64,000 nt of DNA from Clostridiaceae bacterium (GTDB lineage Bacteria > Bacillota > Clostridia > Christensenellales > CAG-138). Below are positions 4,503 to 20,839 of the stretch, one piece after another; position 1 is the first letter of the stretch; every line of letters starts with the position of its first letter. The stretch lies in assembly GCA_039680365.1 (NCBI GenBank), contig JBDKTD010000020.1, positions 1,521-65,520 of the forward strand. The letters run 5' to 3'. The translations under genes and the position numbers were made by a program. The notes beneath the pieces were generated by a model that was not told where the DNA came from, did no database searches, and saw nothing but the letters and a program-made list of their open reading frames with translations.

Positions 4503-4531
4503 TTGTAACGCATGATAAAATGGGTTACATT
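4503..4531 (+). promoter_or_regulatory. Candidate sigma-70-type promoter for the FHA/kinase island
   Basis: TTGTAA-N17-TACATT in the AT-rich gap upstream of 4579. A weak match, and the only plausible one found by eye. Confidence 0.3.
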
Positions 4532-4578
4532 ATAGTTATTGTATATGCAAGCAACGGATTGGTTGGAAGGGGAACGCA

Positions 4579-5520
4579 ATGCGATATTGTCCGGCGTGCG
4601 GAAAGGCAAACGATGGGGCCGTTTGTGTTTTCTGCGGGAGACCGCTCAGAGGCGGCCTCCGTTCTTCGGTATGGACGGCGAGGGAATTCTGCGTCATTTC
4701 TCTTACTTTGATCGGCGCCGTCATCCTTCTTTTTACCCCGCTTATCAGTTCGCCGCTCGTCGGCTCCTATAGCTATCACGATATTGCGTTTAACCCGGCG
4801 CTCAGCGGCGACGCAATCGGTATGGCCATGGATTACTCCTCGGAGGCGGCATTTACGCTGATTGCGCTCAAAGCCGTAGGGCTGATCTTTTATGCCACCA
4901 TACTGCTCTCTCTCGTTGCACTGTTCCAAAAAATAGATAAACTGACGCAAGTATTTCGCATCATCTCATTGGGGTTGGGTGCGATTTTGATGGTTGCGCT
5001 GCTTTATATTAAAGCGGAGGCGTCGCGGAGTCTGCTCACAAGCAGCCTCGTTTCCGTTCGCTTTGGCGTTTTTCTCGGCGTTGCGTGCCTGATTGCCGCC
5101 GTTGTGCTGAGCTATCGAAGGGATGTACTCACCCGCGAGCTCTACCGCATGCCTTCCAACTCGCACGGCCCCGTCATGGCCGACCCGCCTCTGGAAAAGC
5201 GAGCGGGTGCGCTGGTCTGCACGCGCGGCACGTTTTCCGGCGCACGGTTCGACCTTTCGAAAAGTCCATCGGTCGCCATCGGTCGGGACGCGCGTTCCTG
5301 CCAGATCGTGTTTCCAAAGGACATGCCGCGCATCAGCAGAAAGCACAGTCTCGTGCGGTTCAGTTCGTCGGAGAATTGTTACTATGTTACAGATGTGTCG
5401 CGTAACGGTACTTTTCTTGCCGGCGGCGCTCGCCTGCCCGCGGGGCAGCCCTGCAAACTGGCGCGCGGAACGACGATTGCCTTCGACTCCTCCGGCGCGA
5501 ACGCGTTCTATCTGGAATAA
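4579..5520 (+). CDS. Zinc-ribbon / multi-pass membrane / C-terminal FHA domain protein
   Basis: N-terminus MRYCPACG...CVFCG (CxxC-x8-CxxC), then about 4 hydrophobic helices. The C-terminus is VAIGRDARSCQIVFP..ISRKHSLV...VSRNGTFL (FHA signatures GR, SxxH, NG). RBS GGAAGGGG. Confidence 0.85.
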   Translation: MRYCPACGKANDGAVCVFCGRPLRGGLRSSVWTAREFCVISLTLIGAVILLFTPLISSPLVGSYSYHDIAFNPALSGDAIGMAMDYSSEAAFTLIALKAVGLIFYATILLSLVALFQKIDKLTQVFRIISLGLGAILMVALLYIKAEASRSLLTSSLVSVRFGVFLGVACLIAAVVLSYRRDVLTRELYRMPSNSHGPVMADPPLEKRAGALVCTRGTFSGARFDLSKSPSVAIGRDARSCQIVFPKDMPRISRKHSLVRFSSSENCYYVTDVSRNGTFLAGGARLPAGQPCKLARGTTIAFDSSGANAFYLE

Positions 5521-5540
5521 ACGCGTTCTATCTGGAATAA
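5501..5540. repeat. Exact 20-bp tandem duplication spanning the stop codon of the 4579 gene
   Basis: ACGCGTTCTATCTGGAATAA occurs twice back to back (5501-5520 and 5521-5540). The first copy contains the TAA stop. Confidence 0.95.
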
Positions 5541-5564
5541 ACGAATTCTCTGTTTGACGCAGGT

Positions 5565-5755
5565 TTTTACAAACGCAAATAAAGGCTTATTAGAAGCTTT
5601 TATATCTAGAGAATTTTACAGATGCAAATAAAGGCTTATTAAAAGCTTTTATATCTGGAGAAGTTTACGGACGTAAATAAAGGCTTATTAAAAGCTTCTT
5701 TATCCGGTACAGTTACTGCAGACGCAAATAAAAGCTCATAAAAGCTTCTATTGTT
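5565..5755. repeat. Four tandem copies of a roughly 49-bp AT-rich repeat in the intergenic gap
   Basis: The core GCAAATAAAGGCTTATTA(A/G)AAGCTTTTATATCT recurs with GCAAAT/GTAAAT at 5575, 5624, 5673 and 5724 (periods 49, 49, 51). The fourth copy is degenerate. Each unit has a 10-bp hairpin (ATAAAGGCTT/AAGCTTTTAT with one G-U) and an AAAAGCTTTT palindrome. Confidence 0.9.
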
Positions 5756-5807
5756 GATAAATGTTGATAAAGAATCCATACATCTATATGAATCAGGGGG
5801 TAAACTC

Positions 5808-6410
5808 ATGAACATGCAGCGTTGTCCCAGCGGACACTACTTCGACAAGTCAAAGTTTGACCCGTGCCCATACTGCAATCCGGCGACGAGTTCGGACAAC
5901 CGTACGATTCCGCTGGACAGCACGACGGCGGGAACCGTGGATCCCAGCTTTGGCGGCGGATGGAACAACTCTTCCGCAGCCGACGACATCGGCGTTACCG
6001 TGCCGCTGCAGTCCGGCAGCGAGGTGACCATCGCGCTCACGCCCAAGGACGAAACAGGCAAGACGTTGGATCCCGTGGTCGGCTGGTTTGTCTGTGTGGA
6101 TGGTCCTGACAAAGGGTCGGACTTCCGCATCCGCAGCGGCAACAACTCGATTGGCCGCGGAACGGGCGCGCAAATTCGCATCCAGAACGACAGCTCGATT
6201 TCCAAGGATAACATGTCCCATGTGGCGTTCGACAATCGCTCTCGCCGGTTCTACTTTGAAGCGGGCGAGGGCAGAAACTTAATCCGCGTTAACGACGAAC
6301 TTCTGCTGCCGCACCAGTCGCGCGAACTGCGCGCGTTCGACCGCGTGCTGCTGGGGCAGACCACTCTGGCGTTTATTCCGCTTTGCGGAGAGGAGTTTTC
6401 TTGGGAATGA
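5808..6410 (+). CDS. Zinc-ribbon + FHA domain protein (soluble)
   Basis: Start at MNMQRCPSGHYF..CPYCN, preceded by an AGGGGG RBS; the TTG at 5751 was rejected. The C-terminal FHA reads FRIRSGNNSIGRG..IRIQNDSSIS...HVAF...LIRVND. Confidence 0.8.
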   Translation: MNMQRCPSGHYFDKSKFDPCPYCNPATSSDNRTIPLDSTTAGTVDPSFGGGWNNSSAADDIGVTVPLQSGSEVTIALTPKDETGKTLDPVVGWFVCVDGPDKGSDFRIRSGNNSIGRGTGAQIRIQNDSSISKDNMSHVAFDNRSRRFYFEAGEGRNLIRVNDELLLPHQSRELRAFDRVLLGQTTLAFIPLCGEEFSWE

Positions 6411-7549
6411 TCGAATACGGAACTGTATTTTTGAACCAAGCGCCGTTTGTAAGCGACAACGCGACCCCGGACGCCGGGTTTCAAACGAATCCCGGTTTCA
6501 GCGCGACGTCGCCTTCGGCTGCGGCCAACACGACGCCTGGCGCCAACACGACGCCGGCCGCCGGATCGACGCCAAACCCAACGCCTCTGGCAGGCACGCT
6601 TGTCGCGTCTTCCGTCAATCCGGAAGGAACGCCGCTGCCAACCGTTACCGACGGCGGGCAGAAGGATTTGATTCTCGGGCTGTTTATTGCCGTTGCCGCG
6701 CTGGCTTGCGCTACTGTGCTGCTGGCGCGCGCGGCGATACGTCTGAAACGCAAGCAGCGTAAGCGCATCCCCGCTCACGGCGCGGCGCAGAAGGCCAGCG
6801 GGCTGGAAGTGGGTAACGCGCACCATATTGGCAAGCGCGGCAATCAGGAAGACTCCTTTGCCATCTCCGATTTGACCGACGGCAAGCTCTGCCGCCACGC
6901 GGGCGTGCTGGCGGTTGTTGCGGACGGCATGGGCGGGCTTGCGGACGGCGAACTCGTCAGCGGCGGCGTCACTTCTTCCGTGATGCGGGAATTCCCGTCT
7001 CTGCCGGAATCCTGGTCGATGCCGCAGAAGCTTTTATACCTGGTGGAAAAAGCCAACGAAGCGGGCAACGCCGTGACCGGCGGGGTCAAGAGCCACGGCG
7101 GATCGACCATGCTTCTGACGCTGATTCAGGATGGCAGCCTCTGGTTTGCCAGCGTGGGCGACAGCCGCATCTGCCTTGTGCGCGGCGGCGGTGTCGTTCA
7201 ACTGACGCGCCCGCATACATATGAGTCCGATCTGGACAAAAAAGCCGCCTGCAATGAAATCTCCTTTGAAGCCGCTTCGGCCGATTCTCAGCGGAAAGCG
7301 CTCACGAGCTACATCGGCATGGGCGAACTCTGCTCGATCGACTACAACAACCAGCCTATTCAGCTGCTGGCGGGCGACTGGATCATTCTGATGACGGACG
7401 GCGTGTTCAACGAGCTGACCAACGCCGAAATCGCGCACGCGCTTTCGGACAACGCGCCTGCCGCCGCCGAACGAATCGAGCGAATGGTGCTCGCCAAGGG
7501 CGACCCGCATCAGGACAACCTCACGGCGGTCGTGTTACGCATCTTTTAA
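6407..7549 (+). CDS. Membrane-anchored PP2C-family Ser/Thr phosphatase
   Basis: ATGA start/stop overlap with the upstream gene. Pro/Thr/Ala-rich N-terminus, one TM helix (LILGLFIAVAALACATVLLA), then PP2C motifs GKRGNQEDSF, VADGMGG, SVGDSR, LMTDGV, DNLTAVV. Confidence 0.85.
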   Translation: MIEYGTVFLNQAPFVSDNATPDAGFQTNPGFSATSPSAAANTTPGANTTPAAGSTPNPTPLAGTLVASSVNPEGTPLPTVTDGGQKDLILGLFIAVAALACATVLLARAAIRLKRKQRKRIPAHGAAQKASGLEVGNAHHIGKRGNQEDSFAISDLTDGKLCRHAGVLAVVADGMGGLADGELVSGGVTSSVMREFPSLPESWSMPQKLLYLVEKANEAGNAVTGGVKSHGGSTMLLTLIQDGSLWFASVGDSRICLVRGGGVVQLTRPHTYESDLDKKAACNEISFEAASADSQRKALTSYIGMGELCSIDYNNQPIQLLAGDWIILMTDGVFNELTNAEIAHALSDNAPAAAERIERMVLAKGDPHQDNLTAVVLRIF

Positions 7550-7645
7550 AGCACCTTCAAACGATTCGACTCTCTTTAACAAGGGCGCGCGAATCAAAAT
7601 GAAAATAATGAAAAGGACACTGGAATCTACTAGGGAGGGAATATT

Positions 7646-8962
7646 ATGAAATCAACCAAGAAATGGGTCGCACTGATTCTGACCCTGCTGCTGGCGCTGT
7701 CGCTGACGGTTACGAGCGCCGCGGCGTCCGAAAACGCCGTTGCCGACGCGCGCAATGGCGTTGTCCGCATCGTGTTTACCTATACGCTGGATGGGGAACC
7801 GGACGGTCAAATGGGCACGGGTTTCTTCGTTGGCGAAGAAGGCAAACCCGTGGAGTATATCCTTACCAACGCGCACGTTGTTACGGTTTACGATCAGTAC
7901 ACCGGAGACGTGCTGGGTACGGCGGACGAAGTGGACGTCGTATTTGACGATTACAACGAAGATTCTACCATGACGGCAAAGGTGCTCAAAATTTTCGACA
8001 ACGGCGTCGATCTCGCGGTGCTCCGGCTGGAAGCGCCGACCACGCTGCGTCAGCCGCTCAAAATGCTCAGCGCCGACTCCGTGGATATCATGGACAAAGT
8101 TTACGCACTGGGCTTCCCGGGAATTGCGGACGATACGAGCGGTATTGTCAGTTCCAATGTTGAAGACGTCACTATTACGAGCGGCAGCGTAACCAAGGAG
8201 TCGTTCATGGAAGGCAGCGTCAACTTCCTGCAGATCGACGCCGCTATCAGCTCCGGCAATTCCGGCGGCCCGCTGGTGGACGCCAACGGCAACGTCGTCG
8301 GTATCAACACGCAGGCTACCAACCCAGACGTTGGAACCGGTCTGGGCCGCGCGCTCTATATCGACTACGCAATGGACTATTTCGATACCATGGGGTATCC
8401 CTACATGAAGGCGTCCGACAACACCGAAGTACCGGTTACGACGGACGAACTGCCCGCGCCGGAACCCGAACCCGCTCCGACGCCGAGCCTGCCATGGTAT
8501 GTCTTTGCGGCAATCGGCGTTGCCGCCGCCGCGATCATCGCGCTGGTAATCGTTCTTGCGCTCAAGAGCAAAAAGAAACAGACGAACGAATATATTGCGC
8601 CCAACCCCGAACCCGCACCGACGCCGCGGGCCTCTTCCGCGCCGTTCAAGGGCAGGCAGATTATGAATGTCGGTCAGGCCAGCTCGCTGGGCGGTAAAAC
8701 GTACCCCGTGCAGGGCAAGCTCGTCATCGGCCGCGATCCGGCCAAGTGCCAGGTTGTGTTCCCGGCAAAAACGCCGGGCATCAGCAGCGCGCACTGCTCC
8801 GTACAGGAAATTGCGCAGGGCGTCGTGGTCACCGACCTCGGCTCCTCCTATGGCACCTTCCTGGAGAACGGAACGAAACTTGAACCCAACAAGCCCTACA
8901 CCGTTCCGATTGGGGAAGCGTTCTATCTGGCTTCCAAGGACAACGGCTTCCGCGTGAAATAA
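7646..8962 (+). CDS. Secreted trypsin-like (S1C/HtrA-like) serine protease - TM helix - cytoplasmic FHA domain fusion
   Basis: Signal peptide MKSTKKWVALILTLLLALSL. Triad context TNAHVV / DLAVLRL / GNSGGPLVD. TM helix WYVFAAIGVAAAAIIALVIVLAL followed by KSKKK. C-terminal FHA LVIGRD..VVFP..ISSAHC...SSYGTFLENG. Confidence 0.85.
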   Translation: MKSTKKWVALILTLLLALSLTVTSAAASENAVADARNGVVRIVFTYTLDGEPDGQMGTGFFVGEEGKPVEYILTNAHVVTVYDQYTGDVLGTADEVDVVFDDYNEDSTMTAKVLKIFDNGVDLAVLRLEAPTTLRQPLKMLSADSVDIMDKVYALGFPGIADDTSGIVSSNVEDVTITSGSVTKESFMEGSVNFLQIDAAISSGNSGGPLVDANGNVVGINTQATNPDVGTGLGRALYIDYAMDYFDTMGYPYMKASDNTEVPVTTDELPAPEPEPAPTPSLPWYVFAAIGVAAAAIIALVIVLALKSKKKQTNEYIAPNPEPAPTPRASSAPFKGRQIMNVGQASSLGGKTYPVQGKLVIGRDPAKCQVVFPAKTPGISSAHCSVQEIAQGVVVTDLGSSYGTFLENGTKLEPNKPYTVPIGEAFYLASKDNGFRVK

Positions 8963-9008
8963 AACCGTAATGGGCGCTGAACTGCGCCCGACGCGGACGA
9001 GGTAACAG

Positions 9009-10457
9009 TTGGAGAGTTTCCAGACACACAAACTATGCTATCACTGCATGCAGAACGCCGTAGAAAACGGCGTCTGCAGGAGCTGCGGAAGCATTGCCGA
9101 AACCGTACAGTCCGTGCCGTATGCTTTGCCATGCGGCACGGTTCTGCATGGCTGCTATCTGCTCGGCACGGTGCTTGGCGCGGGCGGGTTTGGTATTACC
9201 TATATCGCGCTGCGCCTGCCGGAGGGCCGGCGGGTTGCGATTAAGGAGTATTTTCCTGTGGAGGCCGCTTTTCGCGAAACGGGGGATACGTTCGTCTGCA
9301 GCAGCGAAGTCGGCGCGGAAGCGTTTCGCCGCGGGCGTGAACAGTTTCTCAAGGAAGCGCAGACGATTTACCGCCTGCGCGGCTATCCGGGAATTGTGAG
9401 CGTTGAAAAGCTGTTTGAAGAGAACAATACGGCGTACTTCAGCATGGAATACCTCGATGGGTACGATCTCAAGCACCGCGTTGCGCAGGCGGGCGGGCGG
9501 CTGAACGCCGCGGAAACCCTGCAGACGTTCGCGCCCGTGCTGGACGCGCTGGACTACATCCACAGAAGCGGCGTCATCCACCGCGACGTCAGCCCGGACA
9601 ACATTTTTTTATGCCGGAGCGGCGGGGTCAAGCTTATCGATTTCGGCGCGGCGTACGCGCGTTCGCGGGATAACCTGCGCAATATCCAGCTCATCGTCAA
9701 ACAGGGCTACGCGCCCGTGGAACAGTACTATCAGGATGGCGACGTAGGTCCCTGGTCGGATTTGTACGCGCTGTCAAGCGCCATGTATTACTGCCTGACC
9801 GGAACGGTTCCGCCGCCCGCCCTCCAGCGGGCGCAGAAAGACGAACTGGTTTCGCCAACAAAGCTCGGCGCCGCGATCTCCGTCTCTATGGAAGCGGCAA
9901 TCCTCAAGGGGATGTCGGTGGAACGCAGCGCGCGGTTCTCCAGCGCGGCGGAGATGAAAGCGCGGCTGAGCGCCTGCGCGGGGGAGACGCGCGCCGTCTC
10001 GGGCGAAACGGCTCCCGCAAGGTCGCTTCTCTTGTTGCTCAGGCAGGGAACGGATCAGATTCGAGGCGCTTTTCAGCGTAAAACGTCCGCCGAGCGCGGC
10101 GGGAGCAGAGCGGTTGCCCCGCAGACGCAGATGGGTATTTTCTGCGCTTCCGGCGTGTACGTCGGCAACACGTTTCCGCTCACGGACGACCCGCTTCTGC
10201 TGGGACGGGATGCAAACCGCTGCGGCGTCGTCTTTCCGCCGGACGCAACCGGCGTCAGCCGCGTGCATTGCGAAATTCGCGCAAACGCCGCGGCAAAGTG
10301 CATTGTGCTGCGGGACGTCGGCTCGCGGTTCGGAACACAAATTGCCGAAGGCGCGCTGCTGCACGCGGGCGAGGAACAGACGCTGCCCGTCGGCGCGGGG
10401 TTTCTGATCGGCAAAGAATATTTTACGGTCGTGCTGGTGGAGATTGGCAAGCCCTGA
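9009..10457 (+). CDS. Zinc-ribbon Hanks-type Ser/Thr kinase with C-terminal FHA domain (soluble)
   Basis: TTG start after a GAGG RBS. CYHC...CRSCG ribbon. Kinase motifs GAGGFG, VAIKEY, HRDVSPDN, DFGAA, GYAPVEQY. FHA motifs LLLGRD..VVFP..VSRVHC...GSRFGT. Confidence 0.85.
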   Translation: MESFQTHKLCYHCMQNAVENGVCRSCGSIAETVQSVPYALPCGTVLHGCYLLGTVLGAGGFGITYIALRLPEGRRVAIKEYFPVEAAFRETGDTFVCSSEVGAEAFRRGREQFLKEAQTIYRLRGYPGIVSVEKLFEENNTAYFSMEYLDGYDLKHRVAQAGGRLNAAETLQTFAPVLDALDYIHRSGVIHRDVSPDNIFLCRSGGVKLIDFGAAYARSRDNLRNIQLIVKQGYAPVEQYYQDGDVGPWSDLYALSSAMYYCLTGTVPPPALQRAQKDELVSPTKLGAAISVSMEAAILKGMSVERSARFSSAAEMKARLSACAGETRAVSGETAPARSLLLLLRQGTDQIRGAFQRKTSAERGGSRAVAPQTQMGIFCASGVYVGNTFPLTDDPLLLGRDANRCGVVFPPDATGVSRVHCEIRANAAAKCIVLRDVGSRFGTQIAEGALLHAGEEQTLPVGAGFLIGKEYFTVVLVEIGKP

Positions 10458-10503
10458 GGCACAGGGCGATTTCACCGGGCGGCGAAAGACCAAAGGAGAC
10501 AAC

Positions 10504-11223
10504 ATGCGCTTTGATGACGCGGCATATTCCAATATCGGCGGCAGGGACGTCAATGAGGACGCAACGCTCTGCCGTCAGCAGGAAGGCGCGCTGCTCGCCG
10601 CCGTCGCGGACGGCTTAGGCGGTCACGGCGGCGGGGAGATCGCTTCTTCCACCGCGCTCCTTGCACTAAAAGCCAGCCTGCAGCGGCTGATCCCCCCGAA
10701 AGAAGACATACTCCGGACAGTCACTGCGGAGCTCAATCTGGCGGTACTGGCCAAACAAACCGAACAGTTCAAGATGAAAACAACGCTTGCCATGGCGCTG
10801 ACGGACGGGGAGACGCTTGCGTTTCTGCATGTCGGCGACAGCAGGGTTTATTATTTCCACGGCGGAGAGATCGCCTACCAGTCCACCGACCACAGCGTTT
10901 CCCAGCTTGCGGTGCTGGCAAACGAGATCACGAAAGAACAGATTCGTTTCCACGAGGACCGCAGCAGGCTGCTCCGCTCGCTGGGCAGCGAAGGAAGCGC
11001 CGCGCCGGAAATCAAGCTCGTGCCCGGCGCGCCGGTTCCGGGGGACGCGCTTTTACTGTGCACGGACGGGTTCTGGGAATACGTTCTGGAAAAAGAGATG
11101 CAAAAAGAGCTCAAGCGCACGAAGACCGCAAAGGACTGGCTGGAGCAAATGAAAAAGTATATCCGCCGCCGCGCGGGAAAAAGGAACGACAACAACTCCG
11201 CGGTCGCGGTTCGAATTGGATAA
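10504..11223 (+). CDS. PP2C-family Ser/Thr phosphatase (soluble)
   Basis: Start MRFDDAAYS after an AAAGGAG RBS. Motifs GGRDVNEDA, VADGLGGHGGGE, HVGDSR, LCTDGF, DNNSAVAV. Confidence 0.85.
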   Translation: MRFDDAAYSNIGGRDVNEDATLCRQQEGALLAAVADGLGGHGGGEIASSTALLALKASLQRLIPPKEDILRTVTAELNLAVLAKQTEQFKMKTTLAMALTDGETLAFLHVGDSRVYYFHGGEIAYQSTDHSVSQLAVLANEITKEQIRFHEDRSRLLRSLGSEGSAAPEIKLVPGAPVPGDALLLCTDGFWEYVLEKEMQKELKRTKTAKDWLEQMKKYIRRRAGKRNDNNSAVAVRIG

Positions 11224-11297
11224 TACTCCGACCGGCTTTGACCGCTGGAGCGGGCGCGCGCACACAATTGAAAAATAGACTCTCAGGAGGCAGGCTT

Positions 11298-12848: not shown

Positions 12849-12872
12849 TTTACGTCGAGGAGAAACAGATAC

Positions 12873-15617
12873 GTGCTGAAACCGGAAGAAACATGCATGC
12901 GCTGCTTTGCGCAGCTCGCGAAGCCAAAAGGCGTCTGTCCCCAGTGCGGCTGCGACAATGCCGCGGCCTCCAACGAAGCGCACCAGCTGGAATGCGGCAG
13001 CATTCTGGCGGGTACCTACCTTATCGGCAAGGTGCTTGGACAGGGCGGGTTTGGAATTACCTACATCGGCTGGGACCTCAACCTGGATATCAAGGTTGCG
13101 ATCAAGGAATATTACCCCGAAGGGTGCGTCACGCGCGACGCGCATACGCATATTTCCGTTTTGACCTACGCGGGTCCGAAGGAAGCGTACTTTCAAAAGG
13201 GCAAGGAGCGGTTCGTCAACGAAGCCAAAGCGCTTGCCAAATTCCCAGGCGACAGCGGCGTGGTCGGCGTTCGCACGTTCTTCTACGAAAACGGGACGGC
13301 GTATATCGTAATGGACTTCGTGGAGGGCGAAACGCTCAAGGCGTACGCCCAGCGCCGGGGTGGTAAGCTGCCCGCGGCGGAAGTGCTTTCGCTGTTTCAG
13401 CCAATCTTCCGCTCGCTCGCCCGCGTGCACGACAGCGGCCTGCTGCACCGCGACATCAGCCCGGACAACCTCATGCTGAAAACGGACGGCATGCTGGCGC
13501 TGCTCGACTTTGGCGCCGCGCGTCAGATTTCCGCAGAAGGCGAACACTCCAACACAATCAACGTTAAGCACGGGTTCGCCCCGGAAGAGCAGTACCGCAC
13601 GCGCGGCGAACAGGGCCCGTGGACGGACGTTTACGCGCTTTGTGCGACGATTTACCGCCTCACTACGGGCAGAACGCCGCCGGAAGCGCTTGACCGCATG
13701 GCCGACGGAACGCTGCTCACGCCCCCCAATCAACTGGGCGCGGACTTTACGCCCGCGCAGGAAGCGGCAATTCTCCACGGTCTGGCGGTGCGCGCTTCCG
13801 ACCGGACAAGGGATGTAAGGCAACTGGAGAAGGAACTCTACGGCGGGGAAAGAACGGTTTTTGCAACGTCGCCTTTGAGCGTTTCTTATGAACCCGCCGC
13901 GCCGCAGTCGTCGTTTATCACGCAGCCGCTGACGAGAAGCGAGGAACCCGCAGCGTCGAGCGCGCCTCGGTCGTCGTTTGTCACACAGCCGCAATCTTCC
14001 TATGTCACACAGCCGCAACCGGCGAGCGTGGCACCCGTGAAAGACAGCGGGGCTTTTGCGGGAAACACTCCTGATGCGGCGCCGCTGGACGACGCAGAGC
14101 GGCAGGAAGAAAAACGCAAAAAGGGTAAAAAAGCTCGCACGATTGCTACGTCTATCGCTTTTGCAGTTTTGCTGATTATGACGTTGTTTGCATTTACCGG
14201 CATAGGTGGGTTTCTTCTGATCGGCTTACTCATTCTGGATGCTATCGGGCTGTTCTGGCTTTTGCTGCACAAGGGTGTACTCAAAAACGTAGATCATTCA
14301 GGAAAGATTGAGAAAGCCGCTTCGTTGATCACGTTATCCGGCGGCGCGTTGTCGCTTGCGCTGATCCTCGCGGGAGTTATCGCCGCCCTGAGCGCTCCTT
14401 CCGGTCCGGCGTCGGCACAAGCCGCCACGGAACCGCCGGCTTCCGCTGAACAGCCCGCCGCCACGCTCGACCCGACAATCGTCATTGACTGGCAGGATCC
14501 CACCATCGAGGCGGGAATTCGCAGCGCCATCGGCAAGAGCGAAGGGGAAGCGATCACGACGGGAGACGTGGCGTACATCTACAGCCTTAAAATAGCGGGT
14601 GATACGCTCTATATCAACGACGATTCTGTTTGGCCGTATGTTAATACATATGACAACACCTACTCGGTGGACAACGGGCAGACCTCGCTGCCGATTTCCG
14701 ACCAGACAATTTCGCTTGCAGACTTGGTAAACTTCGGCGGCTTAACAGTGCTGAATGTGTATGCGGTCAACGTATCCGGTTTGGAGTCGCTGAACGACTG
14801 CATTAGTTTGAATACGGTTTGGCTGGATGCCTGCGGCAATGTCGACCTGAATGAGTTTTCCAGTTGCGATCAATTATACGAACTTTCTATTTCTGACTGC
14901 GACGAGGTTGTGCTGACGGGCGCAGGAGAAAAGCTTTTTATCGGCAGTCTCTCGCTGAGCAACTGCGGTACGGTTGACGCTGGGGAACTCGCGCAGTTTA
15001 CCAACTTGAGTTCGCTGAGTATTTGGGCCGCTCCCCTGTCTTCCGCTGAACAAATCGGCAGCATGACGAACCTGACGAGTCTTGCAATGGGGTATAACGG
15101 TGTTTCGAATCTCGACTTTCTGCGGAATCTAGCGAATTTGTCTTCTTTATCGCTGAGCGGAGAAGAGATTACGGAACTTCCTTCGCTGGACGCGCTGACG
15201 GAGCTGACATTGCTTCATCTGACGTTCTGCACGCTGGACGATTCCGATCTGCAGCAGATTGCTTCTCATACCGCACTTACAGAGCTGATGCTCGACGGAT
15301 GCCCGTTTTCGGATTTGTCGTTTGTTGAAAATCTAGCCAATTTAGTTGTTATCTCATTTGACAGTTCGGAAGTTCGGGATATTACTCCTTTGAAGAATCT
15401 GACAAAGCTGGAGACGCTCTGGCTTATGTATATTGACGTAAACGATATCAGCGCGCTGAAGAACTGTAAGAGCCTGAAACGCGTTTACATAGTGAGCACA
15501 CGGGTTTCGAACTATTCTCCGCTGGAAGGGCTGCCTATCGAGTATATCAGCGTTGATGCTGCGTACACGGATCAAGTTCGCTCGATCCTGCCCAACGCGA
15601 TCGTTGATTCCTGGTAA
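12873..15617 (+). CDS. Zinc-ribbon Ser/Thr receptor kinase with extracellular leucine-rich-repeat domain
   Basis: GTG start after AGGAG. CMRC..CPQCG ribbon. Kinase motifs GQGGFG, VAIKEY, HRDISPDN, DFGAA, APEEQY. Two TM helices around residues 425-470 and one near 495. The C-terminal 330 aa or so carry internalin-like LRRs (..LTNLSSLSL.., DISALKNCKSLKRVYI). Confidence 0.85.
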   Translation: MLKPEETCMRCFAQLAKPKGVCPQCGCDNAAASNEAHQLECGSILAGTYLIGKVLGQGGFGITYIGWDLNLDIKVAIKEYYPEGCVTRDAHTHISVLTYAGPKEAYFQKGKERFVNEAKALAKFPGDSGVVGVRTFFYENGTAYIVMDFVEGETLKAYAQRRGGKLPAAEVLSLFQPIFRSLARVHDSGLLHRDISPDNLMLKTDGMLALLDFGAARQISAEGEHSNTINVKHGFAPEEQYRTRGEQGPWTDVYALCATIYRLTTGRTPPEALDRMADGTLLTPPNQLGADFTPAQEAAILHGLAVRASDRTRDVRQLEKELYGGERTVFATSPLSVSYEPAAPQSSFITQPLTRSEEPAASSAPRSSFVTQPQSSYVTQPQPASVAPVKDSGAFAGNTPDAAPLDDAERQEEKRKKGKKARTIATSIAFAVLLIMTLFAFTGIGGFLLIGLLILDAIGLFWLLLHKGVLKNVDHSGKIEKAASLITLSGGALSLALILAGVIAALSAPSGPASAQAATEPPASAEQPAATLDPTIVIDWQDPTIEAGIRSAIGKSEGEAITTGDVAYIYSLKIAGDTLYINDDSVWPYVNTYDNTYSVDNGQTSLPISDQTISLADLVNFGGLTVLNVYAVNVSGLESLNDCISLNTVWLDACGNVDLNEFSSCDQLYELSISDCDEVVLTGAGEKLFIGSLSLSNCGTVDAGELAQFTNLSSLSIWAAPLSSAEQIGSMTNLTSLAMGYNGVSNLDFLRNLANLSSLSLSGEEITELPSLDALTELTLLHLTFCTLDDSDLQQIASHTALTELMLDGCPFSDLSFVENLANLVVISFDSSEVRDITPLKNLTKLETLWLMYIDVNDISALKNCKSLKRVYIVSTRVSNYSPLEGLPIEYISVDAAYTDQVRSILPNAIVDSW

Positions 15618-15721
15618 ATCGCCTTCAACCGTCCGACATTGATGGAAGAAGCGGAATATGCTCGCTATTGCTTGAGGGATAACGCGCTGATAGCGTGAGG
15701 GAACCGCCAAGGGGGTTAAAC

Positions 15722-17830
15722 ATGAATCCGGAACTCATCTGCATGCACTGCATGGCGCAGCTGGAAGAACCCAAAGGAGTTTGCCCGGTCTGCGGGTTCG
15801 ATAACGCGTCCGCGGAAAATGCGCCCAACCAGCTGGAATGCGGGAGCATTCTCGCGGGGACGTATCTAATCGGCTGCGTGCTGGGTCAGGGCGGGTTCGG
15901 AATCACCTATATCGGGCTCGACCTCAACCTGAATCTCAAGGTAGCGATCAAGGAGTTCTACCCGGAGGGTTGCGTCACCCGCGACGGGCGGACGCATACC
16001 TCCGTTGTTCCGCTGCCCGGCGAAAAGAAGGCCTTCTTCGAAAAAGGCAGGGAAAAGTTCGTCAGCGAGGCGCAGATTCTGGCGAGGTTTACCGACGAGC
16101 CGTCCATTGTAGGGGTGCGCGGCTTCTTCCACGAAAACGGCACCGCGTACATCGTGATGAACTTTGTGGAGGGCGAAACGCTGAAAGCCCGTGCTCTTAG
16201 AAACGGCGGCAGGCTTCCATCTGCGGAAGTGCTTGAACTGATGAAACCGCTTTGCGCTTCCCTTTCACGCGTGCACGAAGCGGGGCTGCTGCACCGGGAT
16301 ATCAGCCCGGATAACATCATCGTCAAAAAGAACGGCATGCCGGTTCTGCTCGATTTTGGCGCGGCGCGGCAGATTTCCATGACAGGCGAGCACTCCAACA
16401 CTATCAACGTTAAGCACGGGTTCGCGCCGGAGGAGCAGTACCGCACGCACGGCGAGCAGGGGCCGTGGACGGACGTCTACGCGCTTTGCGCAACCATCTA
16501 CCGCCTTACCACGGGCGTTACTCCGCCGCAGGCGCTGGACCGGCTGACAAGCGACGTTCCGATTACCCTGCCGAACCGGCTGGGCGCGGACTTTACCCCC
16601 GCGCAGGAAGCGGCGGTCATGCACGGGCTAGCCGTGCGTTCGAAGGATCGAATCTCCAGCATGGATCAGCTGCTCGGCGAACTTTCGCGCACCGCGGTCA
16701 AGCCATCCAAGCCGCCCAAGCCACCCGAGCCGCCGATCCCTGCGAGACCCAAGTTCCTGTTGCCGGTGCTGATTGGCTGCGGTGCGGTAGCGCTGACACT
16801 GCTGCTGATACTGGTGCTCAAACCTTCCGGTCAAACGGGCGGCGGGGACGGCGCGGCGCAAGCCGCGTTCAGCGCCCAGCAGTCGGCCAAAGCGAATGCG
16901 CCGGAGGCGACAACTGCGCCGCAGGTTACATCCGAACCGACGCTCGCTCCCGAATCGACCGAGGAGCAGGGAAACCGCTTTCAGGTCGGCCAGGTGTACG
17001 ACGGTTTGCTTGCGGCGGGATCGCACTATTCGGCGGTGCTCAATTCCGATGGAACCGTCTCCGTTTATGGCGGCGGCGAGAGCGCGATTGAAGCCTCGTC
17101 CTGGACGAATGTTGCCCAGCTTTCCGGCTACGGCGATCTGCTGGCGGGGCTTCGCTCCGACGGAACAGTGGTTGTGACGGGCACCGACGCGCAGTATCTG
17201 GATATCGGCGTGATTGAAGGCTGGACGGACATCGTTCAAGTTGAAGTCGGTTATCACGGCCTGCTTGCGCTCACGCGGGATGGATACGTCCTGTATACCG
17301 GCAACATCAACACGGGAGAACAGGATTACGGCAGAAGCGACTGCGTCGATTGGTATGGCGTAAAGAAGCTGATCAAGGGCGACGAGCACATGGTTGCCAT
17401 CAACGCCGACGGCACGATGGACTCGGCCGGAATGGATAACGTGAACCAGTGCGCGGTGAGCGGCTTTAGCAGCGTCATCGATGCGGCCACCGGCTGCCAG
17501 TGCACGTACATCCTGCATGCAGACGGCACGGTGGACGTCATTGGCGGCAACCCAAAATACGACTTTGGCCAGTTTGACGCCGCTGATTGGACGGATATTA
17601 TCGCCATTGAATGTGGCGACCGGTTTGTGATAGGCTTAAAGAGCGACGGAACCGTTGTTGCCGCAGGCGACAATGAATACGGCCAGAAAAACGTTCGAAC
17701 CTGGCAGAATATCGTTGCCATCTATGCGGGAACCCGCAATGCTTATTCTTTGGACGTCAACGGCGAGCTCTACTGCACCGACTACAACAGCGGCGGACAG
17801 AAAGAAATCGACGGCACGTTTATTGACTGA
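15722..17830 (+). CDS. Zinc-ribbon Ser/Thr receptor kinase with extracellular RCC1-like beta-propeller
   Basis: Start MNPELICMHC after GGGGG. The kinase half is a close paralog of 12873. One TM helix (FLLPVLIGCGAVALTLLLILVL). The ectodomain has periodic DGTV...G...W..I..I..G blades and GDNEYGQ, typical of RCC1 repeats. Confidence 0.85.
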   Translation: MNPELICMHCMAQLEEPKGVCPVCGFDNASAENAPNQLECGSILAGTYLIGCVLGQGGFGITYIGLDLNLNLKVAIKEFYPEGCVTRDGRTHTSVVPLPGEKKAFFEKGREKFVSEAQILARFTDEPSIVGVRGFFHENGTAYIVMNFVEGETLKARALRNGGRLPSAEVLELMKPLCASLSRVHEAGLLHRDISPDNIIVKKNGMPVLLDFGAARQISMTGEHSNTINVKHGFAPEEQYRTHGEQGPWTDVYALCATIYRLTTGVTPPQALDRLTSDVPITLPNRLGADFTPAQEAAVMHGLAVRSKDRISSMDQLLGELSRTAVKPSKPPKPPEPPIPARPKFLLPVLIGCGAVALTLLLILVLKPSGQTGGGDGAAQAAFSAQQSAKANAPEATTAPQVTSEPTLAPESTEEQGNRFQVGQVYDGLLAAGSHYSAVLNSDGTVSVYGGGESAIEASSWTNVAQLSGYGDLLAGLRSDGTVVVTGTDAQYLDIGVIEGWTDIVQVEVGYHGLLALTRDGYVLYTGNINTGEQDYGRSDCVDWYGVKKLIKGDEHMVAINADGTMDSAGMDNVNQCAVSGFSSVIDAATGCQCTYILHADGTVDVIGGNPKYDFGQFDAADWTDIIAIECGDRFVIGLKSDGTVVAAGDNEYGQKNVRTWQNIVAIYAGTRNAYSLDVNGELYCTDYNSGGQKEIDGTFID

Positions 17831-17910
17831 TACAATCCGGCCGGGACGATTCAACCCGGCAAGAACAAGTTGGTGAGCACCGCAAAATAACAACGATACA
17901 TGGAGTTATT

Positions 17911-19857
17911 ATGATCAATCCTGAATTTACCTGCATGAACTGCCTGCTGCAGCTCAACGAGCCCAAAGGAGTCTGCCCGCACTGCGGGTTTGACAACGCG
18001 GCCTGCGAAAACGCGCCGCACCAGCTGGAGTGCGGCAGCATCCTCGCCGGATCGTATATGGTCGGGCGCGTGCTGGGGCAGGGCGGGTTCGGCATTACGT
18101 ATGTCGGGCTGGATCTGAACCTCGAAATGAAAGTGGCGATCAAGGAGTATTATCCGGAAGGGTGCGTTACGCGCGATACCCATACGCATATTTCCGTAAT
18201 GACATATGCCGGAGAAAAGGAACTGCAGTTCGAAAAGGGCAAGGAGCGCTTTGTGAGCGAAGCAAAATCGCTCGCCAAGTTCGCCGGCGATCCCGGAATT
18301 GTAGGCGTACGCTCGTTCTTCTACGAAAACGGCACGGCGTATATCGTAATGGACTATGTCGAAGGCGAAACGCTCAAGTCGTACGTTGCCAAGCGCGGCG
18401 GCAAGCTGCCCGCGGCGGAGGTGCTGGCGCTGTTTCAGCCGCTGCTTCGTTCGCTTAAGCGCGTGCATGATATCGGCCTGCTGCACCGGGACGTAAGCCC
18501 CGATAACATCATTCTGCGAAAAAACGGTACGCTGGTTTTGCTGGACTTTGGCGCGGCGCGGCAGATGTCCGCTTCCGGCGAGCACTCCAACACCATTAAC
18601 GTTAAACACGGGTTCGCGCCGGAAGAGCAGTACCGCACGCGCGGCGAGCAGGGCCCCTGGACGGATATCTACGCCCTGGCCGCAACCATGTACCGGCTGA
18701 TGACGGGAGTAATGCCCCCGCAAGCGCTCGACCGCCTCACCAACGAGGCCGTTCTTACGCCGCCCAGCGACTTTGGCGCCGCTCTGACCCACGCGCAGGA
18801 AAGCGCGCTGCTTCACGCGCTGGCCATCCGCGCCGAATACCGCACCAGAGATATGGCGCAGTTTGAAGCGGAACTCTATGCGGGTCAGCCAGTGGTCAAC
18901 GCGTCTTCGTCGGCAGTCCGCTCGGAGCGCGTTTCCAGTACCCCGCCGGTCGTGCCGCAGGCTGCGCCGCAAGCAGCGGCCAAACCCAAAGTCAAACGCC
19001 CCGCGCTGACCATCGGTTTGGGAGCCGCGGCGCTTATCCTTGTGATTTTTGCGATCGGCGCCATTATCGACAGCGTCAATGCGGCGCCGGACGAGCCCGC
19101 CTCGGCGAGCGGAAAGGTGCAGATCGAAGCAAAAGCGCACGCGGGCGTTGCGGACGTCAACCAGCCGGCGAACAGCGACAGCTCCGGCAACATCTCCGCT
19201 ACCAGCGAACCCGCGAGCGACCCCGTCGTCACGCCGGACATCGTTACGCTGACGCTGGGATATGGCGATACGTACTGGTGCACGCCGGATGATTTCGATC
19301 TGCCTTTCGAAGTAGCCGATAGCGACGTAGACTGGGAGGTCGTGTCCTACGACTCCGGCGTTTCCTGCGAAATCGGCATGATCCGCGCGGGAAACGTCCA
19401 GTTTGACCCGGCAAAGGAATACAACTCCATCGCCGTTGTCAATGGAACCACACCCAACGGCACGCAATTGCAGTATAACGTATTGGTTGGCGATGGTCAG
19501 ACGTATTCGTTCGACTGGTCGTCGTCCGCGCGCAGCATGAAAGCCGTGCAGGGATATACCTATATTGCGACGCCGGAAATACGCAACTGCGACGGGTTTA
19601 CGCTCAACTTTGGATTTGATCTCAGCGAAGGCAAAATCGAATACCCGAACTGGTCGGTCTGGGTGCGCGAAAACGGCACGGACTGGGTGTTCATTCAGGA
19701 TATCGATGTGGCGGAAGACACTTATCTGGACTATGACATCGTGTTCGACCGCCCGATTTCGTTTACCGAGATCATCGTCCAGCCGCAGAAACAATATAAC
19801 TATTTTTCCTACTCAAACTGGTATGAGGTTAAAAATCTCGTGTTCAGCGCACGCTGA
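17911..19857 (+). CDS. Zinc-ribbon Ser/Thr receptor kinase with an uncharacterised beta-rich ectodomain
   Basis: MINPEFTCMNC..CPHCG. The kinase half is a close paralog of 12873 and 15722. One TM helix (LTIGLGAAALILVIFAIGAII). I do not recognise the roughly 260-aa C-terminal domain. Confidence 0.85.
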   Translation: MINPEFTCMNCLLQLNEPKGVCPHCGFDNAACENAPHQLECGSILAGSYMVGRVLGQGGFGITYVGLDLNLEMKVAIKEYYPEGCVTRDTHTHISVMTYAGEKELQFEKGKERFVSEAKSLAKFAGDPGIVGVRSFFYENGTAYIVMDYVEGETLKSYVAKRGGKLPAAEVLALFQPLLRSLKRVHDIGLLHRDVSPDNIILRKNGTLVLLDFGAARQMSASGEHSNTINVKHGFAPEEQYRTRGEQGPWTDIYALAATMYRLMTGVMPPQALDRLTNEAVLTPPSDFGAALTHAQESALLHALAIRAEYRTRDMAQFEAELYAGQPVVNASSSAVRSERVSSTPPVVPQAAPQAAAKPKVKRPALTIGLGAAALILVIFAIGAIIDSVNAAPDEPASASGKVQIEAKAHAGVADVNQPANSDSSGNISATSEPASDPVVTPDIVTLTLGYGDTYWCTPDDFDLPFEVADSDVDWEVVSYDSGVSCEIGMIRAGNVQFDPAKEYNSIAVVNGTTPNGTQLQYNVLVGDGQTYSFDWSSSARSMKAVQGYTYIATPEIRNCDGFTLNFGFDLSEGKIEYPNWSVWVRENGTDWVFIQDIDVAEDTYLDYDIVFDRPISFTEIIVQPQKQYNYFSYSNWYEVKNLVFSAR

Positions 19858-19875
19858 TTGACGGGTAATAAACAG

Positions 19876-19916
19876 CGACCCCTTTGCCGTAGGCAAAGGG
19901 GTCGTTTTGTGTTTTT
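19876..19916. terminator. Strong bidirectional intrinsic terminator between the kinase island and lysR
   Basis: 13-bp perfect stem CGACCCCTTTGCC/GGCAAAGGGGTCG with a 3-nt loop, followed by TTTTGTGTTTTT. Confidence 0.85.
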
Positions 19917-20839
19917 CAGCCGGGAGAACCGGCGAGCGGCTCAACGAAGGAGAGGTTGCGGATGTAGCTTTTGAGGTATTCGTTGAACACCTGCATGCTG
20001 CGGATATGGCTCTCGATGGGCGTCCGGTTCGTAATGCGGTAGCAGGTGCGGTTTTCCGGTGGAATGAGCAGTTCATACGCTTTGATATCCGGCCGTTTTT
20101 CAAACGACTTGACCACAGAGGCGGGAACCACCGCCCAGAACCGCGGGTGATCCATAAATTCGAGAATCAGCGTTTCGGAACTGATGAGCACGTACGGGCG
20201 GATCGAAGGGTTCCACCATTGGTCGTGCCAGGCCTGGTAGGTTGGCGAGTTGTTGAAGAACAGCTCGTCTTCCGCGTCCAGCTCGGCGGGATGATAAGCG
20301 GTGCGCAGTTCGCTCTTGTTTTCGCATTGGCGCACAACATAGAGCTTTTCGGAAAACAGCGGCTCGATGAGGATGTTCTTGGAGGGAATGTTTTCGAACA
20401 CCAGCCCGATATCCGCCTCGCGGGACTCCACCATGCGGTAGATGCCCGCCGTGTCCTGCGTCCAAAGCGTTAAATCAAACAGCGCTTCGCTGTCGGTCCG
20501 GACGAGTTCCTTATACAGCGGCGTCAGCAGGTAGGCGTTGAGCGAGCTTGTGCAGCTTAAAGAAAGCGGCAGCTTGCTTTCCGAAGCGGAGAGCAGCTGA
20601 ATATCCTGCCAGAGCTGCATCCAGCGCGTGCCGATGGGCACGAACGCGCGGCCTTTAACAGTTAATTCTATATTTCGTTGTCCTTTGTGCCGTTCCATCA
20701 GCGCAAAACCCAGTTCATCCTCCAGTGACTGCAAACGGTAGCTGACGGTCGGCTGCGATAAATACAGCACTTCGGAAGCCCTGCTGATGCTGCCGGACTG
20801 CACAATTGCAAGGAATGTCTCAATTTGCAGCGAGTTCAC
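19916..20839 (-). CDS. LysR-family transcriptional regulator
   Basis: N-terminal wHTH MNSLQIETFLAIVQSGSISRASEVLYLSQPTVSYRLQSLEDELG and a length of 307 aa typical of LTTRs. It is divergent from the ABC operon. Confidence 0.9.
   Translation of the reverse strand: MNSLQIETFLAIVQSGSISRASEVLYLSQPTVSYRLQSLEDELGFALMERHKGQRNIELTVKGRAFVPIGTRWMQLWQDIQLLSASESKLPLSLSCTSSLNAYLLTPLYKELVRTDSEALFDLTLWTQDTAGIYRMVESREADIGLVFENIPSKNILIEPLFSEKLYVVRQCENKSELRTAYHPAELDAEDELFFNNSPTYQAWHDQWWNPSIRPYVLISSETLILEFMDHPRFWAVVPASVVKSFEKRPDIKAYELLIPPENRTCYRITNRTPIESHIRSMQVFNEYLKSYIRNLSFVEPLAGSPG

Follow-up and report, generated by a model that had tools for sequence, protein, structure and literature searches.

A conserved phosphothreonine signalling cluster of Clostridia, best read as a PpkA/PppA/Fha switch detached from type VI secretion

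Introduction

Signalling through Hanks-type kinases, PP2C phosphatases and FHA domains is well studied in actinobacteria and in type VI secretion system (T6SS) regulation, and to our knowledge the signals and targets of most bacterial receptor kinases are largely unknown. The T6SS kinase PpkA of Pseudomonas aeruginosa has a vWA domain as its periplasmic part. PpkA phosphorylates Fha1/TssL, and FHA docking then triggers assembly (PMC3953482). Here we describe a cluster of ten genes, g1 to g10 (4579-19857, plus strand), in a 64-kb (64,000 nt) stretch of DNA from a Clostridiaceae bacterium, referred to below as the window. An earlier account made from the letters alone (the sequence-only reading) had singled out this cluster as a phosphothreonine (pThr) network. 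We conclude, with a probability of roughly 0.85, that it is a PpkA-type kinase/PP2C/FHA signalling module. This chromosomal module for phosphothreonine signalling and assembly is conserved in Clostridia; it is carried here by a monoderm with no secretion apparatus attached to it, and is best read as a PpkA/PppA/Fha switch detached from the T6SS and rewired.

Other described systems use parts of the same machinery. In Sulfolobus, ArnA (zinc finger plus FHA) binds the phosphorylated vWA protein ArnB, and this FHA-vWA pairing is phosphorylation-dependent (PMC6509490). In the DRA0331-DRA0335 operon of Deinococcus radiodurans, an FHA protein and a PP2C act antagonistically on kinases in vitro, and the operon has been linked to DNA-damage kinases and not to surface functions (bioRxiv 10.64898/2026.01.23.701218). 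Fusions of PrsW to FHA have been noted in passing as probable 'signaling peptidases' (PMC3482391), and an actinobacterial theme of kinase, PP2C and vWA has been tied to GAP1-N2 GTPases (PMC7159879).

Results

Conservation of the cluster

A genome collection was scanned with an alignment of g4 (7646-8962), the gene for a trypsin-like protease joined through a transmembrane (TM) helix to an FHA domain. About 13 of the 80 loci listed were informative, and the generic HtrA pattern GNSGGPL also drew unrelated proteases. A core was found to be syntenic in about 20 loci with unrelated flanks, at 25-90% protein identity, in Christensenellales-like, Oscillospirales and Lachnospirales genomes plus one Akkermansiaceae metagenome-assembled genome (MAG). 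This core consists of the zinc-ribbon-FHA protein g2 (5808-6410), the TM-PP2C g3 (6407-7549), the trypsin-TM-FHA protein g4, one to four zinc-ribbon kinases and usually the soluble PP2C g6 (10504-11223). Small TM-FHA proteins like g1 (4579-5520), PrsW-FHA fusions, kinase-FHA fusions (g5, 9009-10457) and vWA-TM-FHA proteins (g7, 11298-12848) are accessories. The smallest version, L088, holds one kinase, g2, one PP2C, the trypsin-FHA fusion and a PrsW-FHA fusion. Nothing speaks for a chance juxtaposition of unrelated signalling genes except that kinase and FHA genes are generally abundant in some genomes. About 20 independent loci with unrelated flanks show the same genes in the same order, and chance is therefore for practical purposes excluded. 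The neighbourhood singled out from the letters is therefore a conserved one.

A protein with 100% identity to g4 belongs to a MAG under the NCBI label 'Clostridiaceae bacterium', and the near g4 relatives carry the labels Feifaniaceae and Christensenella. In the close relatives L084-L086 (84-90% g4 identity) the order g1-g7 is retained and the downstream kinase arrays differ; the flanks are unrelated, with a RES toxin and ABC transporter, a transposase, and a two-component system. The first gene of these loci is always g1, and small TM-FHA proteins hold the same position in Lachnospiraceae loci. More distant loci (25-62% identity) belong to Christensenella, Ruminococcaceae, Lachnospiraceae, Acetatifactor, Ruminococcus, 'Scybalocola', unclassified Clostridia and the Akkermansiaceae MAG. 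In the last of these, from a lake metagenome, one contig (L067, 1-11251) encodes a trypsin-FHA fusion, a g2-like protein, two PP2Cs and two kinases of the cluster type, which points either to a passage of the cluster between phyla or to mis-binning.

The hallmark gene of the cluster is g2, present in 16 of the 16 related loci examined, and g3 always adjoins it. A HMMER search with g4 returned at least 607 clusters at 50% identity (E<=1e-30), nearly all of the top 150 being full-length fusions of 400-480 aa, and no full-length g4 (>=80% coverage) was found on 72,556 plasmids or 50,697 phage records. The cluster is widespread and apparently single-copy in Clostridia. Each relative has flanks of its own, and at seven annotated loci no neighbour beyond the cluster proved to be conserved, which agrees with the earlier description of it as self-contained.

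Kinase family

Kinases are encoded by g5, g8 (12873-15617), g9 (15695-17830) and g10 (17911-19857). The PDB entry 5hnv ('PpkA') is the best solved relative of both g10 (164 bits) and g5 (142.5 bits), by a factor of two in bit score, whereas PknB/StkP reached only 80-86 bits. PpkA 5hnv and the cluster kinases also have in common the HRDxS loop and the motifs IKEY.P, ENGTAY, GFAP.EQY and GEQGPWTD.YAL. Because of the scores (142-164 versus 80-86 bits) and the shared loop, we assign the four kinases to the PpkA family and not to the PknB family. On a Pantoea plasmid, a protein related to 5hnv at 72% identity is encoded within a tagH-PP2C-tagJ-tssEFGH cluster, which confirms the T6SS link of the PpkA family.

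The sequence-only reading had set the cluster apart from the PknB/PrkC-Stp cell-wall module and from the PpkA/PppA/Fha1 switch alike. The first separation holds: PASTA gave no Pfam match on the kinases, which scored 124-138 bits with the PknB_PASTA model NF033483 (cut-off 450), and the Stp1/IreP model NF033484 gave 100 and 145 bits (the latter for g6; cut-off 230). The second is not supported, given the family of the kinases and the HRDIS loop that they share with PpkA. The TagH model TIGR03354 gave 34 and 27 bits (cut-off 120).

All four kinases were said to have intact motifs. GxGxxG, the VAIK Lys, HRD and DFG are indeed found in each of them, and APE in g8-g10 but without a match in g5. The Lys of the catalytic loop (HRDxKxxN) is replaced by Ser in all four window kinases, and the pattern HRD[IV][STA]P[DE]N, with Ser, Thr or Ala in place of the Lys, was present in 38 of 38 kinases from 18 related loci. 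The loop of PpkA, HRDISLDN, likewise lacks the Lys, and PpkA is reported to be active despite this substitution (PMC3953482). A pseudokinase reading of the missing Lys was rejected, as the trait is common to PpkA. Over the zinc-ribbon and kinase region, both kinases of the D. radiodurans DRA0331-0335 locus share about 40% identity with g8-g10, and these DRA0332/0335-type kinases fall in the same clade as PpkA and those of the cluster.

The family assignment bears on two alternatives. The first is an envelope growth or division regulator like fhaA-fhaB-pstP-rodA-pbpA-pknA-pknB, whose kinases would mainly hit housekeeping targets elsewhere and whose FHA proteins would be adaptors or substrates. 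The theme of the gene order is alike (membrane FHA, soluble FHA, membrane PP2C, ..., kinases), the best NCBIfam match of g1 is FhaB/FipA (37 bits, cut-off 125), the spread and apparent single copy number in Clostridia would suit such a role, and a cell-wall-related LCP gene and a polysaccharide cluster lie within the window. However, Pfam and NCBIfam found no RodA/FtsW, PBP or PASTA, the equivalog scores are far under their cut-offs (FhaB 37/125, PknB_PASTA 124-138/450, Stp1 145/230), and the kinases are of the PpkA and not the PknB family. In addition, proteases and a vWA protein with FHA domains of their own take the place of RodA/PbpA, which points to targets within the cluster. We regard an envelope regulator as unlikely.

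The second alternative is a switch for an export or surface apparatus encoded elsewhere (a type VII secretion system (T7SS) variant, a pilus or similar), in the way that PpkA/PppA/Fha serves the T6SS and kinase/PPM/FHA/vWA genes serve the T7SSc-j clusters. The kinase family would fit, the FHA domains score against the Yop-YscD_cpl family, and in Bacillota genes for kinases, PPM phosphatases, FHA proteins and a vWA protein are frequent in T7SS variants (PMC11217815). Nevertheless, no EssC/EccC FtsK-like ATPase, WXG100 or T6SS gene was found in the examined parts of the window, where the largest other open reading frames (ORFs; 912 and 851 aa) encode beta-propeller and NAGPA proteins. Neither FtsK_SpoIIIE nor WXG100 occurs among the Pfam-annotated neighbours of seven relatives, and the cluster moves alone into differing genomic contexts. 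Such a remote-control role is improbable. The earlier statement that PASTA, FtsW/RodA, PBP, T6SS and T7SS genes are missing was upheld, none having been found in the examined parts of the 64-kb window.

Domain architecture and topology

Domains were called with Pfam, and signal peptides, TM helices and topology were taken from a scan of hydrophobicity and charge (positive-inside). The inventory drawn up from the letters (five FHA domains, four kinases, two PP2Cs, trypsin, LRR and RCC1) was recovered by Pfam.

The g1 protein has an N-terminal CxxC...CxxC zinc ribbon, four TM helices and a C-terminal cytoplasmic FHA domain (44 bits). A degenerate PrsW protease was considered for g1 and rejected, as it has four TM helices only, no PrsW motifs and no Pfam match. 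The soluble g2 protein is a zinc ribbon-linker-FHA protein of FraH/ArnA-like architecture (FHA 21.7 bits, cut-off 20.7) and matched no solved structure among the PDB sequences. In g3, a low-complexity N-terminal tail is followed by one TM helix (88-106), five basic residues and a cytoplasmic PP2C domain (PP2C_2, 44 bits) in which the translation shows NQED, DGMGG, GDSR, TDG and DN motifs. The other phosphatase, g6, is soluble (PP2C_2, 66 bits) and scored about 71 bits against each of PppA (6jkv), PstP and Stp1 in the PDB, so that no discrimination among the three is given. Both translations keep the PP2C metal-binding motifs, and g3 and g6 are apparently active phosphatases, one membrane-anchored and one soluble.

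The g4 protein is composed of a signal peptide, an extracytoplasmic trypsin protease (Trypsin_2, 83 bits), one TM helix and a cytoplasmic FHA domain (42 bits). The protease is S1C/HtrA-like without a PDZ domain, and its catalytic triad H77/D122/S206 is invariant among 15 relatives. The g7 protein follows the same plan, with a signal peptide, an extracytoplasmic part made of a beta-sandwich, a vWA domain and another beta-sandwich, one TM helix and a cytoplasmic FHA fold.

Of the kinases, g5 is a soluble fusion of zinc ribbon, PpkA-family kinase (Pkinase, 98.5 bits) and FHA (31 bits) with no TM helix; its orthologue in L081 and L087 carries an inserted RDD membrane domain. The remaining three each begin with a zinc ribbon and a PpkA-family kinase domain. 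In g8 (Pkinase 92 bits) these are followed by a Thr/Ser-rich juxtamembrane segment, three TM helices and an internalin-like LRR ectodomain (LRR_4 58 bits; internalin models also match), in g9 (Pkinase 93 bits) by one TM helix and an RCC1-type beta-propeller (RCC1_2 68 bits), and in g10 (Pkinase 101 bits) by one TM helix and an ectodomain of a small uncharacterised family. The true start of g9 is likely the ATG at 15722 (MNPELICMHC).

Signal peptides, TM helices and the positive-inside pattern agree with the membrane topology that had been predicted. From the signal peptides, and from the basic residues that follow TM helices, the scan supports a placement of the protease, vWA, LRR, RCC1 and g10 C-terminal domains outside, and of the FHA, kinase, PP2C and zinc-ribbon parts inside.

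FHA pockets and the g2 linker

The five FHA modules had been proposed as readers of pThr. FHA folds are present in g1, g2, g4, g5 and g7, but the pockets are of unequal quality. The pocket of g1 is fully canonical (GR / SRKH / NGT). Those of g4 (GR / SSAH / SYGT) and g5 (GR / SRVH / RFGT) keep the Arg, Ser and His and have Tyr or Phe instead of the Asn of NGT, a substitution that is conserved across the family. In g2 the pocket is atypical, with GR kept and S..H shifted, and in g7 all pThr residues are lost (GK / APVQ / SKT, versus GR / SxxH / NGT).

An alignment of 16 g2 orthologues showed a conserved zinc ribbon (C-x2-GH...CPxC), the FHA domain and a variable linker with 1-7 copies of G-x-T-[VIA]-[APG]-[VLI]. 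The linker in the window has four Thr-x-x-hydrophobic motifs (TIPL, TVDP, TVPL, TIAL), 'SDIGKTVAV' is repeated six times in L004 and 'GYTAPV' six times in L007. The classic ligand of FHA domains is a Thr followed at +3 by a hydrophobic residue. In the g2 linkers T[VIAM][APGD][VLIPA] was observed 46 times versus 4.3 expected from shuffled linkers, an enrichment that is inflated since the motif was defined after viewing the same sequences. Related motifs follow the kinase domains of g8 (ERTVFA) and g9 (SRTAVK).

The vWA protein g7

In Pfam the FHA domain of g7 scored 37 bits and VWA_2 only 18, under the cut-off of 27. The vWA domain that had been claimed for it was settled by an AlphaFold model (mean predicted local distance difference test (pLDDT) 78.7) with a beta-sandwich, vWA, second beta-sandwich, TM helix and FHA fold, for which Foldseek returned ITIH1, ArnB, vWF-A3, BatB and many FHA domains. 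On this model g7 holds a vWA domain despite its sub-threshold sequence score, and the distant orthologue in L007 reaches 48.6 bits for VWA.

The metal ion-dependent adhesion site (MIDAS) is degenerate in the window clade, with DTNTA instead of DxSxS. L007 (16620-18509) keeps both canonical sites, a DVSGSIS MIDAS and a GR/SGIH/NGT FHA pocket, and L081 (15339-16862) keeps the DVSGSIS MIDAS only, its FHA pocket being partly degenerate (GQ/APAH/GGT). These differences suggest that g7 may have turned into a metal-independent and pThr-independent structural partner. A protein 90% identical to g7 (P0122) is labelled 'Candidatus Cryosericum sp.' by NCBI; all other close relatives are from Clostridia, and this one probably derives from a mis-binned contig in a public MAG.

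Receptor ectodomains

Among g8, g9 and g10, identity is 69-74% in the kinase parts, and the ectodomains are unrelated. Between g8 and its orthologues in close relatives, identity is 94-100% in the kinase part, 20-60% in the juxtamembrane/TM part and 16-88% in the LRR part. The GC content of the ectodomain-coding DNA is 44-53%, versus 57-66% for the kinase part. Because the kinase parts are nearly identical and the ectodomains divergent and lower in GC, these comparisons indicate a conserved kinase chassis on which the ectodomains were either exchanged or diverged very fast. Close relatives differ in the number and kind of ectodomains (LRR/RCC1/RCC1, LRR/LRR/RCC1, LRR...), so the three-member receptor-kinase array emphasised by the sequence-only reading is present here but is not a defining feature.

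For the g10 ectodomain (19075-19854) only six relatives were found (P0167-P0172), all of them zinc-ribbon-TM-domain proteins without a kinase. They measure 290-365 aa, with a RanBP-type zinc ribbon, a TM helix and the domain. The design of zinc ribbon inside and sensor outside thus seems to exist without a kinase too. A model of the domain (pLDDT 66.5) matched CBMs in Foldseek with E values of 7e-5 to 1e-3, and tentatively consists of an Ig-like part plus a jelly-roll resembling CBM29/CBM32/discoidin. Two other proteins of the window were considered as donors of ectodomains and rejected, the LRR protein at 58593-60143 with a generic 27% LRR similarity only, and the propeller protein at 50884-53622 with no similarity.

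This variability is the starting point for another explanation, in which the cluster serves surface surveillance or conflict. The hypervariable ectodomains would recognise molecules of foreign origin (receptor-binding proteins of phages, toxins of competitors or glycans of the host, for example), and the FHA-tethered protease would destroy the ligand or trigger a protective response, a scheme likened to plant LRR receptor kinases and KAPP. The contrast in g8 between kinase and ectodomain identity, the changing number and kind of ectodomains, the lower GC of their coding parts and the use of the g10 ectodomain as a cassette on non-kinase proteins are all consistent with it, as are the differing flanks with their RES toxin and transposase. 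The best kinase matches in PADLOC are also defence kinases, PD-T4-6 and MAD6. However, these and the other PADLOC matches are to generic kinase, PP2C and protease domains: the PP2Cs match PDC-M21C only, g4 matches only the protease domains of retron reverse transcriptase-protease and LmuA, MAD6 in NCBIfam gave 112-119 bits (cut-off 460), and g1, g2 and g7 match nothing. Full-length g4 is absent from the plasmid and phage records. The core is conserved across orders with a vertical-looking divergence, which sets it apart from patchy defence islands. Infection is sensed within the cell by known anti-phage systems, whereas sensing here would be outside, and fast-evolving ectodomains are also expected of nutrient, host or matrix sensors. 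Surveillance is therefore not the reading that we prefer, although of some weight.

A more specific version would be a counterpart of receptor-kinase innate immunity. Cassette-swapping kinases with LRR, propeller and lectin-like ectodomains would recognise phage tail proteins, bacteriocins or host factors, and multivalent pThr-FHA condensation would concentrate the ectoprotease and the adhesin-like vWA protein at the contact site and neutralise the intruder. We know of no described precedent in bacteria for extracellular receptor-based defence, and as a joint claim we consider this quite doubtful. If true, the PpkA/PppA/Fha switch of the T6SS would be a specialised offshoot of a broader family that senses outside and assembles at the membrane.

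Transcription and flanking sequences

The ORF list and its translations confirmed ten co-directional plus-strand genes between 4579 and 19857, as well as the ATGA overlap between the g2 stop and the g3 start (6407-6410). The gaps had been described as short. They measure 24-104 bp with the sole exception of 287 bp between g1 and g2. An intrinsic terminator at 19874-19906 on the plus strand, with a 15-bp stem of 9 G-C pairs followed by a T run, closes the cluster and is the only strong terminator-like site in 3300-21100, in line with the claim that there is none before about 19876.

The g1-g2 spacer is AT-rich and packed with tandem repeats (5500-5751, no strand assigned), a 20-bp unit in 2.2 copies and then a 49-bp unit in 3.8 copies; the repeat search gave three matches versus 0 expected. 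The 20-bp unit repeats the 20 nt with which g1 ends, including its stop codon, and the 49-bp unit is AT-rich and contains AAGCTT palindromes. A promoter-like TTGATA...TATGAA and the g2 ribosome-binding site lie 3' of the repeats (5752-5807). In L086 the spacer (8040-8110) has the 49-bp unit in single copy, and that of L084 (7920-8010) has a different duplication, a 32-bp triplication of the g1 3' end. The spacer is slippage-prone, and its repeats vary in number directly upstream of what is probably the g2 promoter. Because this 287-bp AT-rich spacer is filled with repeats and has promoter-like hexamers before g2, an internal promoter is likely there. A single operon, as had been claimed, is plausible by the layout of g1-g10, with the reservation that part of the transcription may start within this spacer.

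Upstream of the cluster is a 650-bp non-coding stretch of low GC (3314-3960). Within it, the perfect hairpin ATCCCCGCGTATGCGGGGAAC at 3605-3625 looks like a type I-E repeat of a CRISPR (clustered regularly interspaced short palindromic repeats) array. Such an array was rejected, as the palindrome occurs once in the window, and an Rfam scan of the whole window gave no match, this hairpin included. The genes further upstream are also low in GC (46-51%) and encode a DUF7402 protein (31-1212) and a 681-aa protein without a Pfam match (1269-3314); neither is kept beside the cluster in relatives.

On the other side, an M20/M28 peptidase gene (26638-27831) lies 7 kb downstream of the cluster, and one is directly downstream of it in the distant relatives L081 (16975-18108) and L087 (17083-18216); this could be a coincidence or a loosely linked partner. 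The region from 32103 to 62732 resembles a surface-polysaccharide region, with an LCP-family protein, a Polysacc_synt flippase and a NAGPA phosphodiester glycosidase, together with the secreted LRR protein and the LVIVD/beta-propeller protein mentioned above. The AT skew is strong at 56-58 kb, in the place of a minus-strand gene (55787-57478) that has a weak DUF6080 match only.

Discussion

For the PpkA-type signalling module that we favour, a mechanism can be proposed by analogy with PpkA-Fha1/TssL (PMC3953482) and ArnA-ArnB (PMC6509490). A ligand on a kinase ectodomain would activate the kinase, which would phosphorylate the Thr motifs of the g2 linker and Thr residues of its own juxtamembrane segment. 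These pThr sites would be bound by the FHA domains with intact pockets, those of g1, g4 and g5 and of the PrsW-FHA fusions of related loci, and this docking would collect the membrane protease(s), together with the vWA protein, in a multivalent assembly beside the activated receptor. Extracellular proteolysis or adhesion could in this way be turned on or positioned from the cell interior, until the membrane and soluble PP2Cs dissolve the assembly and reset the state. The FHA-tethered proteases look like the output of the cluster, because in the minimal locus L088 they are accompanied by no more than a kinase, an adaptor and a phosphatase. The most likely physiological role is the sensing and remodelling of the cell surface or its immediate surroundings. 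We would give the full model, in which docking of FHA proteins controls a surface protease, an even chance.

Several observations weigh against this picture. The catalytic-loop Lys is missing from every cluster kinase, and the FHA domains of g4 and g5, on which docking would depend, are without the canonical Asn. Not every FHA domain should be able to read pThr, judging by the degenerate pocket of g7 and the atypical one of g2. The Thr motif was chosen on the very sequences in which it was counted, and it is weak in some Lachnospiraceae g2 members (L005, L015, L006). Finally, the repeat-filled g1-g2 spacer hints at an internal promoter rather than at a single transcript.

The module is nonetheless a compact and self-contained case, abundant in gut Clostridia, in which sensors, readers, erasers and a plausible output are encoded together. 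It shows that PpkA-type kinases are not confined to the T6SS, it predicts a specific docking motif (the Thr-x-x-V/L/I repeats of the zinc-ribbon-FHA scaffold), and it points to an exchange of receptor ectodomains on kinase domains that remain almost identical. If surface proteolysis is indeed controlled from the inside out, this would be a new bacterial way to regulate extracellular enzymes and might explain strain-specific surface interactions in the gut. Our full-text literature searches, which leave out most subscription journals, returned no published description of the cluster, the closest accounts being those of the PrsW-FHA fusions, the actinobacterial kinase, PP2C and vWA theme, the T7SS variants and the Deinococcus operon, and the earlier suspicion that no mechanistic account exists is consistent with this.

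Among known systems, the PpkA/PppA/Fha1-TagH pathway of the T6SS (Pseudomonas, Agrobacterium, Serratia) is based on the same kinase family, with PP2C and FHA partners in the same cluster. The logic also appears alike, from an envelope signal through Thr phosphorylation and FHA docking to a membrane complex (PMC3953482), this sequence of events being the one proposed here. The differences are that the host is a monoderm, that no T6SS genes were found in the examined parts of the window or in related loci and the TagH model stays below its cut-off, and that an FHA domain is joined to each of an ectoprotease, a vWA protein, a 4-TM protein and a kinase. The cluster also has two phosphatases and several kinases, the latter with N-terminal zinc ribbons and LRR, RCC1 or CBM-like ectodomains.

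The D. radiodurans DRA0331-DRA0335 operon is built from the same domain kit (vWA, Ser/Thr protein kinase, FraH-like FHA, KI-FHA-PP2C and a second kinase). DRA0333, described as a FraH orthologue, presumably has the zinc ribbon-linker-FHA architecture of g2, and no pairwise similarity was found between g2 and DRA0333 or between g7 and DRA0331. In the isolate DRR11 (L089, 4171-5114), the annotation gives two neighbouring ORFs for DRA0333, one encoding a hypothetical protein of 225 aa and the other an FHA protein of 88 aa, which suggests a frameshift or an annotation split. Unlike the cluster, this operon is without trypsin-FHA or PrsW-FHA fusions, its vWA protein is not fused to FHA, and FHA is fused to PP2C.

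With the Sulfolobus system (ArnA/ArnB, kinases ArnC/D, PP2A) the cluster has in common the architecture of ArnA in g2, and in the g7 model the ectodomain matches ArnB (8s05, E 1e-7) and the FHA domain matches that of ArnA (5a8i). However, the phosphatases here are PP2C instead of PP2A, and the output in Sulfolobus is archaellum expression. An ArnA-ArnB type contact between g2 and g7 would be topologically excluded, because the vWA domain of g7 is predicted outside the membrane and g2 inside.

The mycobacterial PknA/PknB-PstP-FhaA-FhaB(FipA) cluster likewise brings together receptor Hanks kinases, a membrane PP2C and anchored and soluble FHA proteins. It differs in that PASTA, RodA and PbpA are missing here, the kinases are of a different clade, and g2 has a zinc ribbon and not the FhaA N-domain. 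A membrane effector with its own FHA domains is known in Rv1747, the FHA-bearing ABC transporter regulated by PknF, which clusters on phosphorylation. Plant LRR receptor kinases and KAPP also place an LRR ectodomain on a Ser/Thr kinase, with a membrane PP2C, FHA docking and fast ectodomain diversification. This is a functional analogy only, and in the cluster FHA and PP2C are on separate proteins, with FHA on proteases and a vWA protein.

Genes for vWA, PP2C and kinase proteins co-occur in the TerY-P triad and in T7SSc-j, with FHA too in T7SS variants (PMC11217815), but the vWA proteins TerY and TscE are cytoplasmic, whereas that of g7 is extracytoplasmic. Readings of the cluster as TerY-P, a T7SS variant, a PASTA module or a known defence system were rejected, as components are missing and no defence or equivalog model reached its cut-off. 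Set beside these systems, the biochemistry of the cluster is familiar. It is the wiring that appears undescribed, with FHA-tethered ecto-proteases and vWA proteins, a zinc-ribbon-FHA scaffold that carries several Thr motifs, receptor kinases that swap cassettes, and kinases of the PpkA type in a monoderm without a T6SS.

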